Source of the DNA: an uncultured Bacilli bacterium
Lineage (GTDB): Bacteria > Bacillota_I > Bacilli_A > RF39 > UBA660
NCBI GenBank assembly: GCA_910587745.1
Contig: CAJUNE010000001.1
Coordinates: 15,439 to 79,438, forward strand
Length of the DNA: 64,000 nucleotides
Direction: 5' to 3'
This document shows positions 46,060 to 61,718 of this stretch, one piece after another. The notes below the pieces were generated by a model. It saw only the letters and a program-made list of their open reading frames with translations, had not been told where the DNA came from and did not search any database. Position numbers and translations under genes: made by a program. The number at the start of each line of letters is the position of its first letter. Within the stretch, counting starts at the first letter, position 1.

Positions 46060-46774
46060 AATACTTACTAAAATTTTTATCTTTTCTATTTTCGATTGGA
46101 GTTAAATCTATTTCTCTTTTAATTGGATAAATATTTTTGATATGCGAAGGTCTAGAAGATAAGACAATAACTCTAGTACTAATACTTATAGCTTCTGCCA
46201 AATCATGAGTTACCATAATAGCAGTTTTGCCTTCATTTTTAAGAATTTTATAAACATCATCACTAACACTAAGACGAGATTGATAATCAAGTTTACTAAA
46301 AGGTTCATCAAGAATTAAGATATCGGGTTTTAAAGCCAGAGTACGAATTAAGGCAACTCGTTGTCTCATACCACCAGATAGTTCATCAGGATATTTATCT
46401 TTAAAATCTCCAAGACCATAAGTATCAAGTAAATTATTTACATAATCCATATTATCTTTAGTTTTAGTATGAGTTATTTCAAGAGCGATACAAGCATTAT
46501 CAAATACAGTTCGCCATGAAAGAAGTGAATCACTTTGAAGCATATATCCAAGTTTTAGATTACTTTTAAGAAATTTAATATCACCAGTAGTTTTAGTATC
46601 CATATTAGTAAGGATATTAAGTAGGGTAGATTTACCACAACCACTAGGTCCTACGATTGAAATAAATTCTCCTTGAAATAAATCAAAGGTTATATCACTT
46701 ATAGCATTTACTTCCTTTTTACCTGAATAATAAACTTTAGAAATATTTTTAACACTAAGAAGTTTATTTTTCAT
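46025..46774 (-). CDS. ABC transporter ATP-binding protein (SsuB/TauB-like)
   Basis: Walker A GPSGCGKST, signature LSGGMRQRVAL, Walker B ILILDEPFSKLD. Confidence 0.85.
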   Translation of the reverse strand: MKNKLLSVKNISKVYYSGKKEVNAISDITFDLFQGEFISIVGPSGCGKSTLLNILTNMDTKTTGDIKFLKSNLKLGYMLQSDSLLSWRTVFDNACIALEITHTKTKDNMDYVNNLLDTYGLGDFKDKYPDELSGGMRQRVALIRTLALKPDILILDEPFSKLDYQSRLSVSDDVYKILKNEGKTAIMVTHDLAEAISISTRVIVLSSRPSHIKNIYPIKREIDLTPIENRKDKNFSKYYDLIWKDLQYE

Positions 46775-47312
46775 ATAAATTATTAATTAGTTTACTATAA
46801 GGCATACGTTTATCAATTAACTTATTATCTTCTAAAATATCTTGTAAGTTATTAAAACTTTGTTCATTAATAAAAGGATCACTAAGCCAAGAATCATATT
46901 TCTTATAATTATCAACGATTACAGTTAAATCTTCCAAACTAATATCTGGAAACTCTGGTAATATAACTTTAGCAATAGTTTTAGCATCATTATTTTTAAC
47001 AAATTCTAGTCCTTTATTTATAGCATTAGTAAAATCTTTTAAAGTTTCATTATTTTTATTTAAGTAACTTTTACGAGCATAAAAAGCAGTATAAGGCATT
47101 TCACCAGATAATTTACCAATTGATTCAACAATACAAGCCTTACTATTTTTTACAACACTAGTAGCAGTAGGTTCAAATAAATCAACGAAGTCTCCCATAC
47201 CACCAATAAATGAACCTGATAAAGAAGCAAAATCAACAGCATAATTAACGTTTATTTTACTTAAATCAATATTACTATTCTTAATAGCATTTAAGAAGTT
47301 TAACGCTGGCAT
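46764..47312 (-). pseudogene. C-terminal half of an NMT1/SsuA-like substrate-binding-protein gene, severed by element insertion
   Basis: SBP C-lobe-like sequence. Joins in frame with the 61245-61718 fragment once the intervening element is removed in silico (...VGRQGG|MPALNF...). Confidence 0.7.
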
Positions 47313-47683
47313 TCCTCCTGTTCTTGTACAAAACTTATAACCAATTTAATTCCCCATAAAATAAGGGGTTAATAAAATCATTAGACAAGAAATAGTCTTC
47401 TTTTTTTAATGATTTTATCTCCGTGGGTAAAAACACTCGTATTATATTAGTAGAAGATAAGGAGTGTTGATTTTATGACTATATTTAAGTTGAATTTCAA
47501 TGAAATTATTCCACCGTGATATCTATATTATTATTTATTAAGAATATATAATAGGAGAAAAATATATCCCCTTTTATATATTAAGTTAAGTCATAGTAGT
47601 TATAGATTAAAAGGAGAAGAATTTGAAAGATTTAACTATTTATGTTAATAACGATTTAATTATAGCCAATAAAGGTTATAATT

Positions 47684-48676
47684 ATGAAGACTGAAGTTAA
47701 AAAATTAAGAGATTATGATATCGATTTAGAAGATGAAGTAACATTAATAACTTATAATTGTCATCATCACGAGATACTATATGTTAAGAATAAGAATAGT
47801 AAACCTAGAATTAAGTTATTACCTAATCATATGTATCAGGATCTTACTACTGGAGAAATAAAACCTTGTAAGAAACAAATTAGTAATAGGTCTGAGGGAA
47901 AGATTTCATTAAGGAAAACCTTTAAAAGTATAAGAGAAGCCATTAATGTTAATTGTGAAGATGTTAGAAAATGTAAAATGGTGACATTAACTTATGATGA
48001 AGTTATGAGAGATACAAAGAAATTTGATAGTGATATCAATAAATTTGTTAAGAAGTTTAATTATAGGTATGGAAAGTCAGAGAATATAAAGGTATGTGAG
48101 GCTCAATCAAGTGGTTCTCTACACGCTCATATTATCTTTATATGGGAAGATATCGCTCCATATATTGATTATAAAGATTTAATAAAAGTATGGGGTAAGG
48201 GTTATGTAAAAGTAACTCCTCTATATGGAAATGTCGATGATTTAGGAGCATATTTTACTGCTTGTCTAAGTGATTTACCTATTGAAGAATGTAATATGAC
48301 GTATGAAGAAGTAAGAGAAAAGAACTTGTTAATAAAAGAAGTATATGTAGATGTTAAAACTGGAGAACAATTAAAATGTCCTAAGTATTTTATAAAAGGT
48401 GGTAGATTACAATTTTATCCCCCTAACTTTAGAATATTTAGACCTTCAAGAGGTTTAAAGAAACCACTTAAGGAAAAAATGGAGAATAAAGAAGCATTGG
48501 AAAAGGTTGATTCGAATGAACCAACCTACGAGTCTTATCTCCAAGTATTAGATGAAAACGGTAATGAATTGAATGTAATTGTTCGAAAATGTTATAATTC
48601 GATGAGATTTCCAAGAGAAGATGATAAAGAACCAGAACTAGTTTTCAATATACTAGATGATTTATCTTCTTCATAA
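47684..48676 (+). CDS. HUH-type replication initiator-like protein (rolling-circle Rep-like)
   Basis: MVTLTY (motif I-like) and SGSLHAHIIF (HUH motif II); a candidate Tyr region GAYFTAC. Confidence 0.45.
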   Translation: MKTEVKKLRDYDIDLEDEVTLITYNCHHHEILYVKNKNSKPRIKLLPNHMYQDLTTGEIKPCKKQISNRSEGKISLRKTFKSIREAINVNCEDVRKCKMVTLTYDEVMRDTKKFDSDINKFVKKFNYRYGKSENIKVCEAQSSGSLHAHIIFIWEDIAPYIDYKDLIKVWGKGYVKVTPLYGNVDDLGAYFTACLSDLPIEECNMTYEEVREKNLLIKEVYVDVKTGEQLKCPKYFIKGGRLQFYPPNFRIFRPSRGLKKPLKEKMENKEALEKVDSNEPTYESYLQVLDENGNELNVIVRKCYNSMRFPREDDKEPELVFNILDDLSSS

Positions 48677-61052: not shown

Positions 61053-61100
61053 AAATCATAAGTTCGTTAGGAATTTATGATTTTTATATTGTTTAATTAA

Positions 61101-61290
61101 GGTTATAAGTTTAATGGCAGACCAGTTGCTCTTATGAAAAACTTATGACTTTTTAAGTAATTAATAATGGTGGTTATAAGTTTTGTAGTAGACCAGCCGT
61201 TCTTGTGTTAAACTTATGACCTACTTTTATCTGTATAAACAGGGTTATAAGTTTAGTAGCAGACCTCCTTGACGACCAACAAGTATTTCT
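61101..61290. repeat. three tandem units (71-bp period) of an att-like ~50-bp imperfect palindrome ggttataagttt-N26-aaacttatRacc; the third unit is the attR junction
   Basis: Units start at 61101, 61172 and 61243. Units 1 and 2 are complete palindromes about 80% identical to the reconstructed attP. Unit 3 has only the left arm plus core, followed by host SBP sequence. Confidence 0.75.
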
Positions 61291-61718
61291 TTTCCATATA
61301 AATCTTCTAAATTAAATTCTTTAGAGCAATCACGAGCTAAAATAAATTGTCCATCTCTTTTAGTAAGACCTGCAAAAGTTACAAGATAGTCTTCTTCACC
61401 ACCTTGATAAACATATATTGCTGATTCTGTTCCAGCAAAACCAATATCAACAGTATTAGAAAGAACTGCTGCACTAACTTTATCGGCACCAGGCGTTAAG
61501 ATAACTTCTAAATCAATACCAGCATCCTTAAAGTAACCATTTTCCATTGCTACATATAAAGGTGCATAAAAAGCACTATGAGTAACCTCAGCGAGTTTAA
61601 TTTTTGTAAGTTTTTTACCATCCTCATTTTTATTCGTTTTAGTAAAAACAAAATATAAACCTATAGTAGCAAGTAATAGTGTAATTAAGCTTAAAAATGT
61701 AATAATTTTCTTTTTCAA
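61245..61718 (-). pseudogene. N-terminal half of the NMT1/SsuA-like SBP gene (lipoprotein-type signal), truncated by the insertion
   Basis: Signal/TM IITFLSLITLLLATIG and an SBP N-lobe. Ends ...VGRQGG then LLLNL* read from element DNA. Promoter and RBS are intact, so a truncated product may still be made. Confidence 0.7.

Follow-up and report, generated by a model that had tools for sequence, protein, structure and literature searches.

The split binding-protein gene and the inserted element

The window, which is the whole 64-kb stretch of DNA analysed, contains a single NMT1/SsuA-type substrate-binding protein (SBP) gene that is split by an element carrying a large serine recombinase, and excision of this element in silico restores the gene seamlessly (Table 1). 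The two parts appear as minus-strand ORFs of 157 amino acids (61245–61718) and 182 amino acids (46764–47312), the first of which extends into the element arm and stops at 61245. An earlier note, made from the sequence of the window, had taken them for halves of one SBP with the cognate ATPase and permease immediately downstream, and both claims are borne out: the ORFs match complementary positions of the Pfam NMT1 profile (5–96 and 176–212, respectively) and the two transporter genes are in place. Joining the host flanks gives, in frame and at the predicted length of about 334 residues, a 1005-nt ORF that encodes 334 amino acids and reads ...ILVGRQGGMPALNF.... The rejoined protein covers NMT1 profile positions 5–212 of 216, as is typical of an NMT1/SsuA-type (NitT/TauT family) binding protein, and is identical to and collinear with the database protein P0001 (334/334 residues). 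Failure of the rejoined ORF to align with intact homologues is thereby excluded, as is the possibility that the fragments are genuinely separate genes, since intact orthologues occupy the same gene neighbourhood, an operon with ABC ATPase and permease genes. The empty sites whose existence the note had proposed checking with the reconstructed attB were found, with the exact 121-bp sequence present in six element-free contigs, and the rejoined window agrees with one element-free contig at 99.7% over 7.7 kb.

Table 1. Features of the interrupted locus, in window coordinates
Feature	Position	Strand	Remarks
ABC ATPase (46025–46774) and permease (45247–46059)	45247–46774	-	Downstream of the split gene, in one operon with it
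Binding-protein gene, C-terminal part (host DNA)	46764–47318	-	G151 codon position 3 onward, GMPALNF... to stop; residues 152–334 of intact P0001
attL (attB left arm + P0 right arm)	47293–47342	+	CC crossover at 47317–47318
Integrated element, 13,950 bp including one copy of the CC core	47319–61268	+	Absent from six empty-site contigs; present in other host backgrounds
Rolling-circle-type replication initiator (REP_ORF2-G2P)	47684–48676	+	Exact protein listed for 50 assembly-collection blocks
Macro-domain protein, cargo	48952–49524	+	Weak DarG-like match
XRE-type helix-turn-helix regulator	51391–51684	-	
PIF1-family helicase	56526–57869	+	
Small serine recombinase, 198 aa, resolvase/invertase type	58640–59236	+	
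Large serine recombinase, 520 aa (Resolvase + Recombinase + Zn_ribbon_recom)	59490–61052	+	
Hairpin then U-run directly 3' of the recombinase stop	61053–61090	+	ΔG -12.3 kcal/mol, z -5.3
P1, complete attP-type 50-bp site	61101–61150	+	GT core at 61125–61126; predicted match: threonine (ACx) attB variants
P2, complete attP-type 50-bp site	61172–61221	+	GC core at 61196–61197; used as attP in alanine (GCx) hosts
attR (P0 left arm + attB right arm)	61243–61292	+	CC crossover at 61267–61268
Binding-protein gene, N-terminal part (host DNA)	61269–61718	-	Residues 1–150; first two G151 bases lie in the core

The element had been put at about 14 kb with a large serine recombinase, in agreement with the 13,950 bp and the three-domain, 520-residue protein listed in Table 1. 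Its other genes code for a replication initiator, a helicase, a regulator, a second recombinase and cargo, and Pfam and PHROGs scans recognized nothing beyond these classes; several further small ORFs are also present. No capsid, terminase, tail or lysis gene was found by Pfam in all 16 larger ORFs or by PHROGs in ten of them, the whole element had no megablast match in phage (50,697 records) or plasmid collections and IMG/VR matches to the recombinase reached only ≤33% identity. The element does not qualify as a prophage or temperate phage. A PADLOC scan of the cargo gave weak matches only, to a DarG-like Macro domain and, at E values of 1e-4 to 1e-5, to Cas4b and Cas13a; the latter two were taken as noise.

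The large serine recombinase has the three domains that define its family, namely a catalytic domain (PF00239, residues 9–161, E 6e-19) in which R12-L13-S14-R15 is invariant across 27 relatives, a Recombinase domain (PF07508, residues 185–303) and a zinc ribbon (PF13408, residues 314–374) with the invariant cysteines C321, C324, C341 and C343, followed at residues ~390–480 by a region rich in charged heptad-like sequence, a candidate for the directionality-controlling coiled coil that such enzymes carry as an insertion in the zinc ribbon. Among characterized serine integrases, with which the earlier note had suggested a comparison, the closest solved relatives are the SPbeta integrase, whose alignment spans residues 61–484, and TnpX, whose catalytic domain is the best solved match (E 8e-28). 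The hairpin directly downstream of the gene is likely to be its terminator.

Attachment sites and the crossover position

Both break points carry the common core that the note had described, CCTCCT at 47314–47319 and 61264–61269. Joining the element ends yields the expected imperfect 50-bp palindrome, GGTTATAAGTTTAGTAGCAGACCTCCTGTTCTTGTACAAAACTTATAACC, as attP (hereafter P0; the intact site used as a query is AGTAGCAGACCWCCTGTTCTTGTAC), and the attB with its CC core is GGCATTCCT-CC-TTGACGACC. The 12-mer arm (≤1 mismatch) occurs five times in the 64-kb window, each time at an att site, with 1.1 occurrences expected by chance. A search of IMG/VR and JGI metagenome contigs for intact P0, as would occur in a circular form or an alternative-site insertion, gave no match.

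Comparison of insertions locates the crossover. The element arm of attL, TGTTCTTGTACAAAACTTATAACC, is constant, and the host bases up to position 24 are variable (T/A/G). In attL the base at position 24 comes from the host (T, A or G, according to the host) and that at position 27 from the element; in attR the element supplies position 24 and the host position 27 (T, C or A). Because the origins of these two positions switch between attL and attR, the crossover is confined to positions 25–26. Recombination between attP and attB was conservative at this 2-bp crossover, with no duplication of the target beyond the common core. On the plus strand the CC crossover corresponds to the GG of the first glycine codon (Gly151) in a conserved G-R-x-G-G-M-P motif (GRxGGMP), so that the crossover dinucleotide fills positions 1 and 2 of that codon. 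In Bxb1, the central dinucleotide is the cleavage site and the sole determinant of polarity (PMC3642061).

One statement of the note did not hold. The recombinase gene had been placed about 50 bp from the used site, and the actual distance from its stop (61052) to the start of the attR arm (61243) is 190 bp; a distance of 48 bp separates the stop from P1, a site that had been missed, as had P2. The boundaries of the element and the site that was used can indeed be read directly from the sequence, as claimed, but the attP so read is incomplete, as there are three tandem attP-type sites.

Tandem attP-type sites and host alleles

P1 and P2 lie in tandem between the recombinase gene and attR with a spacing of 71 bp; the left arm of P1 is TTTAATGGCAGACCAGT, followed by TGCTCTTATG in the intact site. 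Direct evidence for the role of P2 comes from a contig (L183) that encodes an identical recombinase and whose DNA is identical to the window at 4708/4708 positions up to the P2 core. Across this core it reads ...GACCA-GC-ACTACGGCC, continuing into an N-terminal binding-protein fragment ending A-G-R-S-A, and the host junction is 71 bp nearer the recombinase gene than that of the window. A second P2 event is found in L205, which has the same P2-core junction and a different host flank. As far as junction sequences can establish it, P2 is a working alternative attP that is joined to the host at its GC core in GCx hosts (L183 and L205). The left end of such an insertion would read host ...GGCATnCCn-GC-CGTTCTTGTGTTAAACTTATGACC, followed by a 21-bp spacer and intact P0; the L183 contig starts ~370 bp inside this predicted left end, and a look-up of the exact Rep protein found no left junction of a P2 insertion, all left junctions returned being those of P0 with a CC core. 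For P1, no host junction of this element was found among all ten members of the 90% cluster of the recombinase.

Sibling elements provide the corresponding observations for other sites. In L107 (recombinase 61% identical) a GT site is joined to a T-G-M-P host (threonine, ACx) and a CC site is intact just inside attL; the attP reconstructed from this element equals the site that remains intact nearest the recombinase gene in L112, L123 and L069, all of which were inserted through their CC site. In L025 (recombinase 69% identical) a GC site was used in an A-G-M-P host and an intact CC site remains at the left end, whereas its siblings L103 and L104 used the CC site. Alignment of the siblings reveals circular permutation by one site, as expected. 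The junctions show that both GT and GC sites have served as crossover sites in sibling elements. GRxTGMP is present in 119 of the 120 intact homologues nearest to the L107 host protein, by which measure the threonine allele at the crossover codon is native; an empty attB with a GT core is also present (contig L189). Ala and Ser variants occur among homologues of the window protein. Because a local BLAST of fetched proteins for uninterrupted Ala-carrying orthologues of the L183 and L025 host proteins returned only relatives at ~50–55% identity, the case for native Ala alleles comes from other lineages (GRQAGMP) and from the agreement of both junctions in L025. An identical integrase was seen in at least six different host alleles.

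Across relatives, the arms of the alternative sites show the same position-specific conservation as those of the used CC sites, and their cores are GC (11), GT (8), GA (2), AC (1) or AA (1) and never CC; where alternative sites are nearly identical, the base that differs most often is that at position 26 (7/21 differences). The distinct attR sequences in the scan comprise 59 with CC, three with GC and one with GT, to which the two P2 (GC) junctions of L183 and L205 were added later. Since CC-core insertions dominate, use of an alternative site is a minority outcome in the sampled data.

The GC core is palindromic, and by the Bxb1 rule control of orientation would be lost; all GC insertions seen nevertheless have the same orientation, although the events are few.

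The regular tandem array with its 71-bp spacing, adjoining the recombinase gene and retaining the recombinase-binding arms, resembles a set of accessory or decoy binding sites such as res subsites II and III, which would tune directionality, synapsis or recombinase expression and would never undergo crossover; that the extra sites are not the ones used in most sampled insertions fits this account as well. They are, however, full-length attP-type sites with the geometry of the used site, many relatives (e.g. L029, L068 and L083) have no extra site at all and the spacing ranges from 62 to 74 bp among relatives, so that helical phasing is not conserved. Moreover, such sites are the crossover sites in L183, L205, L025 and L107, which departs from a res-type arrangement and contradicts an accessory role as their sole function. 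We consider this account improbable.

A role in transcription may also be envisaged, in which the palindromes are terminators or insulators of the recombinase gene, retained since the hairpin of the real attP is split on integration. Each site as RNA would form a long hairpin with a T-rich stretch (ΔG -12.8 kcal/mol for P1 and -14.9 kcal/mol for P2), but this folding is only marginally better than that of shuffled sequence (z -1.75 and -2.9, respectively), a consensus terminator scan called neither site and the gene already possesses the stronger dedicated hairpin and U-run at 61053–61090. Conservation of the inner recombinase-binding motif, variation of the core and use in crossover would all be left unexplained. 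Termination was rejected as the main function of P1 and P2 given the near-shuffled folding and the dedicated hairpin, and the explanation as a whole appears very unlikely.

We give just as little credence to the extra sites being inert relics of duplication or of tandem insertions, with the rare junctions at them being accidents or assembly artefacts. The copy number of extra sites is 0, 1 or 2 among relatives, and a hybrid site in L204, composed of the P1 left arm and the P2 right arm, indicates that the array can rearrange. Against this reading, the arms are no less conserved than those of functional sites even between lineages with recombinases of only 57–70% identity, and the 12–24 bp spacers are too short to have held a second element that was later deleted. 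The four independent alternative-site junctions, drawn from separate assemblies and studies, are each placed precisely at the core and all lie in the same gene, codon and frame, with the core matching the native host allele.

The best explanation, which we regard as very probable from the junctions and alleles compared here, is insertion at Gly151 by the element's own recombinase, combined with a host-matched tandem attP array (P1, P2 and P0). The 13,950-bp element was inserted into the Gly151 codon by conservative recombination across the 2-bp crossover, and since the crossover lies within the GG of the codon, excision with the help of a putative directionality factor would restore the gene exactly. 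In the circular form the order would be recombinase gene, P1, P2, P0 and Rep gene, with the three tandem attP sites having common recombinase-binding arms and different crossover dinucleotides (GT, GC and CC, respectively). Since a serine integrase religates only where the central two bases of attP and attB match, each site would be specific to one allele of the target codon: CC to Gly (GGx), GC to Ala (GCx) and GT to Thr (ACx). The element would open at the site matching the host that it has entered, and the unused sites would remain intact at either end; P0 was used in the window, hence P1 and P2 are intact between the recombinase gene and attR. The array would be stable because attP does not pair with attP and no core is compatible with another. 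This arrangement predicts that the element can use P1 and that the three sites are biochemically orthogonal.

It is possible, though rather doubtful, that the tandem array also serves as an evolvable means of setting host range, with hosts and elements co-evolving in a contest over one codon. Replacement of Gly by Ala, Thr or Ser at the crossover codon might protect host lineages from insertion and hence from knock-out of their transporter gene, and the elements might respond with single-base changes at position 26 in a spare attP, keeping a portfolio of cores (CC, GC and GT here; GA and AC in relatives). P1 would then be a functional attP for hosts with the threonine allele, and the GA and AC cores would mark serine and valine alleles that have not yet been sampled.

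Comparison with known systems

Serine integrases are usually described as having one attP paired with one attB, and a mismatch of the central bases blocks recombination. A set of several attP sites that have the same arms but differ in their central bases would provide a natural route around this limit, through which one integrase could reach hosts that differ in the target codon. As the crossover falls on the first two bases of the codon, compatibility of the sites would follow the amino acid and not synonymous drift, which is a testable design principle. For the biology of mobile elements this would be a simple new way to extend the host range, and it would account for 'pseudo-attP' repeats, which annotation would otherwise pass over. 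For genome engineering it would provide a natural counterpart of hand-designed orthogonal att sets, with a family of related integrases and matched sets of sites, and the present element is a fully delimited example for which attB, attP, attL and attR are all known. A full-text literature search of incomplete coverage turned up attP arrays and orthogonal sites of engineered origin only, and no natural multi-attP element.

Other gene-interrupting elements that depend on a large serine recombinase include Bxb1 in groEL1, Listeria A118 in comK and the skin element (SpoIVCA) in sigK; the SPbeta/SprA element interrupts spsM (PMC5499854). The element described here shares with them a Resolvase, Recombinase and Zn-ribbon enzyme, insertion within a coding gene, imperfect palindromic att sites of ~50 and 40 bp, a 2-bp crossover and exact restoration of the ORF. 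It differs in having three attP sites with different crossover dinucleotides where the others are described with a single attP, and in its cargo, which is no recognizable phage: a rolling-circle Rep and a PIF1 helicase are present, with no capsid or terminase.

The res sites of small serine resolvases (Tn3/γδ and Sin) are likewise tandem binding sites for recombinase dimers that adjoin the recombinase gene. In res, however, crossover is confined to site I, and sites II and III are of a different geometry and have an architectural role; here every site has the complete geometry of an attP, and two or more classes of site are used for crossover. In composite SCC islands (CcrAB), too, a single locus holds several att-type sequences, and a large serine recombinase is involved. 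Their repeats are junction-type sites between successive inserted elements; those described here are complete attP-type sites of one element, 12–24 bp apart with nothing between them.

A parallel to the identical arms and differing dinucleotides served by one integrase is found in engineered orthogonal attP/attB pairs, such as those of phiC31 assembly and the Bxb1 landing-pad variants; engineered att pairs that differ in the overlap only are orthogonal, as reported for the phiC31 assembly system (PMC3936721). In contrast to such man-made sets, the array described here is apparently natural, lies in tandem on one mobile element and has cores that are matched to a natural Gly/Ala/Thr polymorphism at the target codon.

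The interrupted binding-protein gene and its crossover codon

The two minus-strand ORFs that the earlier note took for the lobes of a single NMT1-type binding protein (157 and 182 aa) are both present and match the first and last parts, respectively, of the Pfam NMT1 profile, with the cognate ATPase and permease genes directly after the split gene. The core CCTCCT occurs at both break points (47314–47319 and 61264–61269), and in silico excision of the 13,950-bp element (47319–61268) yields a 1005-nt ORF encoding 334 aa, reading ...ILVGRQGGMPALNF... at the junction. This product is identical (334/334) to P0001, an intact database protein, and the reconstructed 121-bp empty host site (attB) is found exactly in 6/6 contigs encoding P0001. 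All six lack the element and have the gene order of the window, with an ADP-ribosyltransferase-like gene on one side and ATPase, permease and RhuM-family genes on the other; the rejoined window matches one element-free contig at 99.7% over 7.7 kb. Because of the P0001 identity, the element-free neighbourhoods and the exact attB in six contigs, the proposal of one binding-protein gene split by an element stands. The RhuM-family 'virulence' gene beside the transporter operon is found in element-free genomes too and is therefore host DNA, outside the element.

The window alone leaves 6 bp of crossover ambiguity, which was settled by other insertions of the same element. The base to the left of the final CC is T, A or G according to the host in attL (left junction) and the element's own base in attR (right junction); the base to its right is the element's T in attL and T, C or A according to the host in attR. 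Exchange is therefore at CC, positions 25–26 of the 50-bp site (47317–47318 and 61267–61268). Read on the coding strand, these bases are the GG that begins codon Gly151, which is the first glycine in the conserved motif G-R-x-G-G-M-P. The crossover thus coincides with the two amino-acid-determining positions of the codon and is unaffected by synonymous change. The crossover residue in the 120 closest homologues of the window protein is Gly (115), Ala (3) or Ser (2).

An array of attP-type sites

Joined, the element ends form a 50-bp imperfect palindrome, GGTTATAAGTTTAGTAGCAGACCTCCTGTTCTTGTACAAAACTTATAACC, as had been claimed for attP. That attP is readable from the sequence holds for this used site, P0; two more complete attP-type palindromes, P1 and P2, had been overlooked. 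They lie in tandem, with 71-bp spacing, between the recombinase stop codon and attR. The distance from that stop codon (61052) to the used attR arm (61243) is 190 bp rather than the ∼50 bp reported earlier. In gapless alignment the three sites have common outer arms (GGTTATAAGTTT / AAACTTATRAC) and inner arms (AGACC / CTCTT or TTCTT) and differ at the centre. The 12-nt arm, with at most one mismatch, occurs five times in the window, each time within an att site; the chance expectation is 1.1.

Features of the element and its surroundings
Feature	Position	Strand	Remarks
RhuM-family gene	44151–45191	+	Pfam E 2e-109
Permease	45247–46059		Directly after split gene
ABC ATPase	46025–46774		Directly after split gene
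C-terminal binding-protein ORF	46764–47312	−	182 aa
Two hairpins	47343–47683		Between attL and Rep gene
Macro-domain protein	48952–49524	+	Pfam E 3e-16; weak DarG-like PADLOC match
Rolling-circle-type Rep			Element gene
DUF7487 protein			Element gene
XRE-type regulator			Element gene
Membrane or zinc-ribbon proteins (two)			Element genes
PIF1 helicase			Element gene
Small serine recombinase	58640–59236	+	198 aa; resolvase/invertase type
Large serine recombinase	59490–61052		520 aa; Resolvase, Recombinase, Zn_ribbon_recom
P1	61101–61150		Complete palindrome; centre ...GACCA GT TGCTC...
P2	61172–61221		Complete palindrome; centre ...GACCA GC CGTTC...
P0			Used site; centre ...GACCT CC TGTTC...
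N-terminal binding-protein ORF	61245–61718	−	157 aa
ADP-ribosyltransferase-exoenzyme-like gene	61840–62631	+	Host gene

Transcription termination is unlikely to be the main function of P1 and P2: the recombinase gene is followed by a stronger hairpin and U-run of its own (61053–61090, z −5.3), whereas P1 and P2 fold only marginally better than shuffled sequence and were not called in a terminator scan.

In a survey of about 100 related loci, CC-core insertions are the commonest (59 distinct attR sequences). Each locus has 0, 1 or 2 intact alternative sites between the recombinase gene and attR; in insertions through an alternative site, the opposite end retains an intact CC site. Conservation of the arms by position is alike in 23 distinct alternative sites and 37 reconstructed CC sites; the cores of the former are GC (11), GT (8), GA (2), AC (1) and AA (1), and never CC. 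Cores GA and AC would match Ser (TCx) and Val (GTx) codons, respectively. The most variable position among near-identical alternative sites is 26 (7/21 differences; naive binomial p ∼1e-5, indicative only because the site pairs share phylogeny).

The array itself gains and loses units. In L024, L207, L208 and L211 the CC site is accompanied by a P2-like site only. Another locus, L204 (Logan SRR35899514_18903), has a two-site array in which the recombinase-proximal site, 50 bp past the recombinase stop, combines the left arm of P1 with the right arm of P2 around a GC core, which implies a deletion between P1 and P2.

Natural insertions at the alternative sites

Four independent natural insertions show, as read from their junctions, that the extra sites are alternative attP sites. 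Locus L183 has an identical recombinase and DNA identical to the window (4708/4708) through the P2 core, beyond which it continues as ACTACGGCCAGC..., an N-terminal binding-protein fragment ending A-G-R-S-A; compared with the window, this fragment is nearer the recombinase gene by 71 bp, and P1 is intact. Locus L205, with a recombinase variant of the same 90% cluster, has the same P2 junction and a different host flank, ACTTCTTCCAGC. From these two loci, read at the right junction only, P2 is seen to have served the window's element as attP.

In L025 (recombinase 69% identical to the window's), attL (host ...GGCATACCA-GC-TGTTCG...) and attR (...GACCA-GC-TTTTCTACC) rebuild an in-frame protein, ...AGRKAGMPAM..., and a CC-core site is intact 71 bp inside attL; its siblings L103 and L104 are reversed, with the CC site used and a GT site intact beside the recombinase gene. 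In L107 (61% identical), a GT core is joined to host sequence encoding ...VGRSTGMPAL... and an intact CC site lies inside attL. The attP reconstructed from L107 is, base for base, the intact recombinase-proximal site of its siblings L112, L123 and L069, the CC sites of which were used. Pairwise alignments place the inter-core segment of ∼70 bp at the left end in L025 and L107 and at the right end in the siblings, which is the circular permutation expected. Of the 120 intact homologues closest to the L107 host protein, 119 have the motif GRxTGMP, and the empty attB GCAGGCATTCCT-GT-ACTTCTACCAAC is present on a contig that encodes an intact protein 99% identical to it; the host crossover-codon alleles thus appear to be native.

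A res-like accessory role is contradicted, as the extra sites serve as crossover sites and their spacing is variable (62–74 bp). That they are inert relics is likewise contradicted, by arms conserved across lineages with 57–70% identical recombinases and by the four exact junctions at alternative sites. Among all ten members of the recombinase's 90% cluster, none was found with this element inserted through P1; the GT sites of siblings suggest that P1 could also be used.

Cleavage by serine integrases takes place about the two central bases, and in Bxb1 these alone determine polarity (PMC3642061); two further papers describe att pairs differing in the central overlap alone as orthogonal (PMC3936721) and recombination without a directionality factor as confined to attP × attB (PMC3783163). 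We propose that one recombinase would bind P0, P1 and P2 and complete strand exchange only at the site whose core matches the host codon. The three sites would be unable to delete one another, and the intact sites, with the end of the element at which they lie, would record which one was used, P0 in the window. The GC core is palindromic, and the few GC insertions are all in one orientation, although orientation control should be lost.

Element content, mobility and relation to known elements

The serine motif and zinc cysteines of the large recombinase are invariant among relatives, and its nearest solved proteins are TnpX, SPbeta integrase and TP901-1 integrase. The element also encodes several proteins without assigned function. 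None of its genes was recognisable as a capsid, terminase, tail or conjugation gene, and the whole element gave no megablast match to phage and plasmid records; it is therefore named an integrative element and not a prophage. The 64,000-nt window contains no tRNA or tmRNA gene, nor any Rfam family at the gathering threshold. Every copy of the element retains the small serine recombinase, directly upstream of the large one; it might serve to resolve multimers of a replicating circle. The Macro-domain protein could antagonise the ADP-ribosyltransferase-like protein of the host gene adjoining the insertion site, or the pairing could be a coincidence. Of the hairpins near attL (TTCCCCATAAAATAAGGGGTT and AGACAAGAAATAGTCTTCTTTTTTT), the second resembles a terminator; on the circular molecule both would lie between the Rep gene and the att array, and they may shield Rep from read-through or hold a replication origin.

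The recombinase is 100% identical in amino-acid sequence beside at least six different host binding-protein alleles, a Rep protein of identical sequence appears in 50 blocks of the assembly collection, and the element is, on this comparative evidence, clearly mobile; no circular form was found in IMG/VR or JGI metagenome contigs. Its hosts, gut MAGs labelled 'Tenericutes', are uncultured low-GC Bacilli, with a GC content of 26.5% in the window and 27.3% in the element. Mini-elements of ∼3.0 kb occupy the same codon of the same gene in L066 (9815–12872; complete MAG chromosome OZ006970.1) and likewise throughout L060–L067 and in L096 and L098, in the order attL, ∼190 bp, a related recombinase (56% identical), one 395-aa ORF with the HipA-kinase-like motif NEDRHLNNFG, and attR. 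Elements that differ widely in cargo (3, 9.5 and 14 kb) therefore share the integrase-plus-att module. Other, unrelated large-serine-recombinase genes often lie within a few kilobases in the hosts (L010 6170–7789, L019 2157–3863 and L185 6786–7563), which suggests that these small Bacilli genomes contain several such elements.

A full-text literature search of partial coverage, in which absence is no proof, retrieved engineered attP arrays and orthogonal site sets only and no natural multi-attP element. We are not aware of any reported natural element whose several attP sites differ in the crossover dinucleotide. Taken alone, the insertion is an ordinary if exceptionally clean case of a gene-interrupting serine-integrase element; set against this class, the novelty is the attP array.
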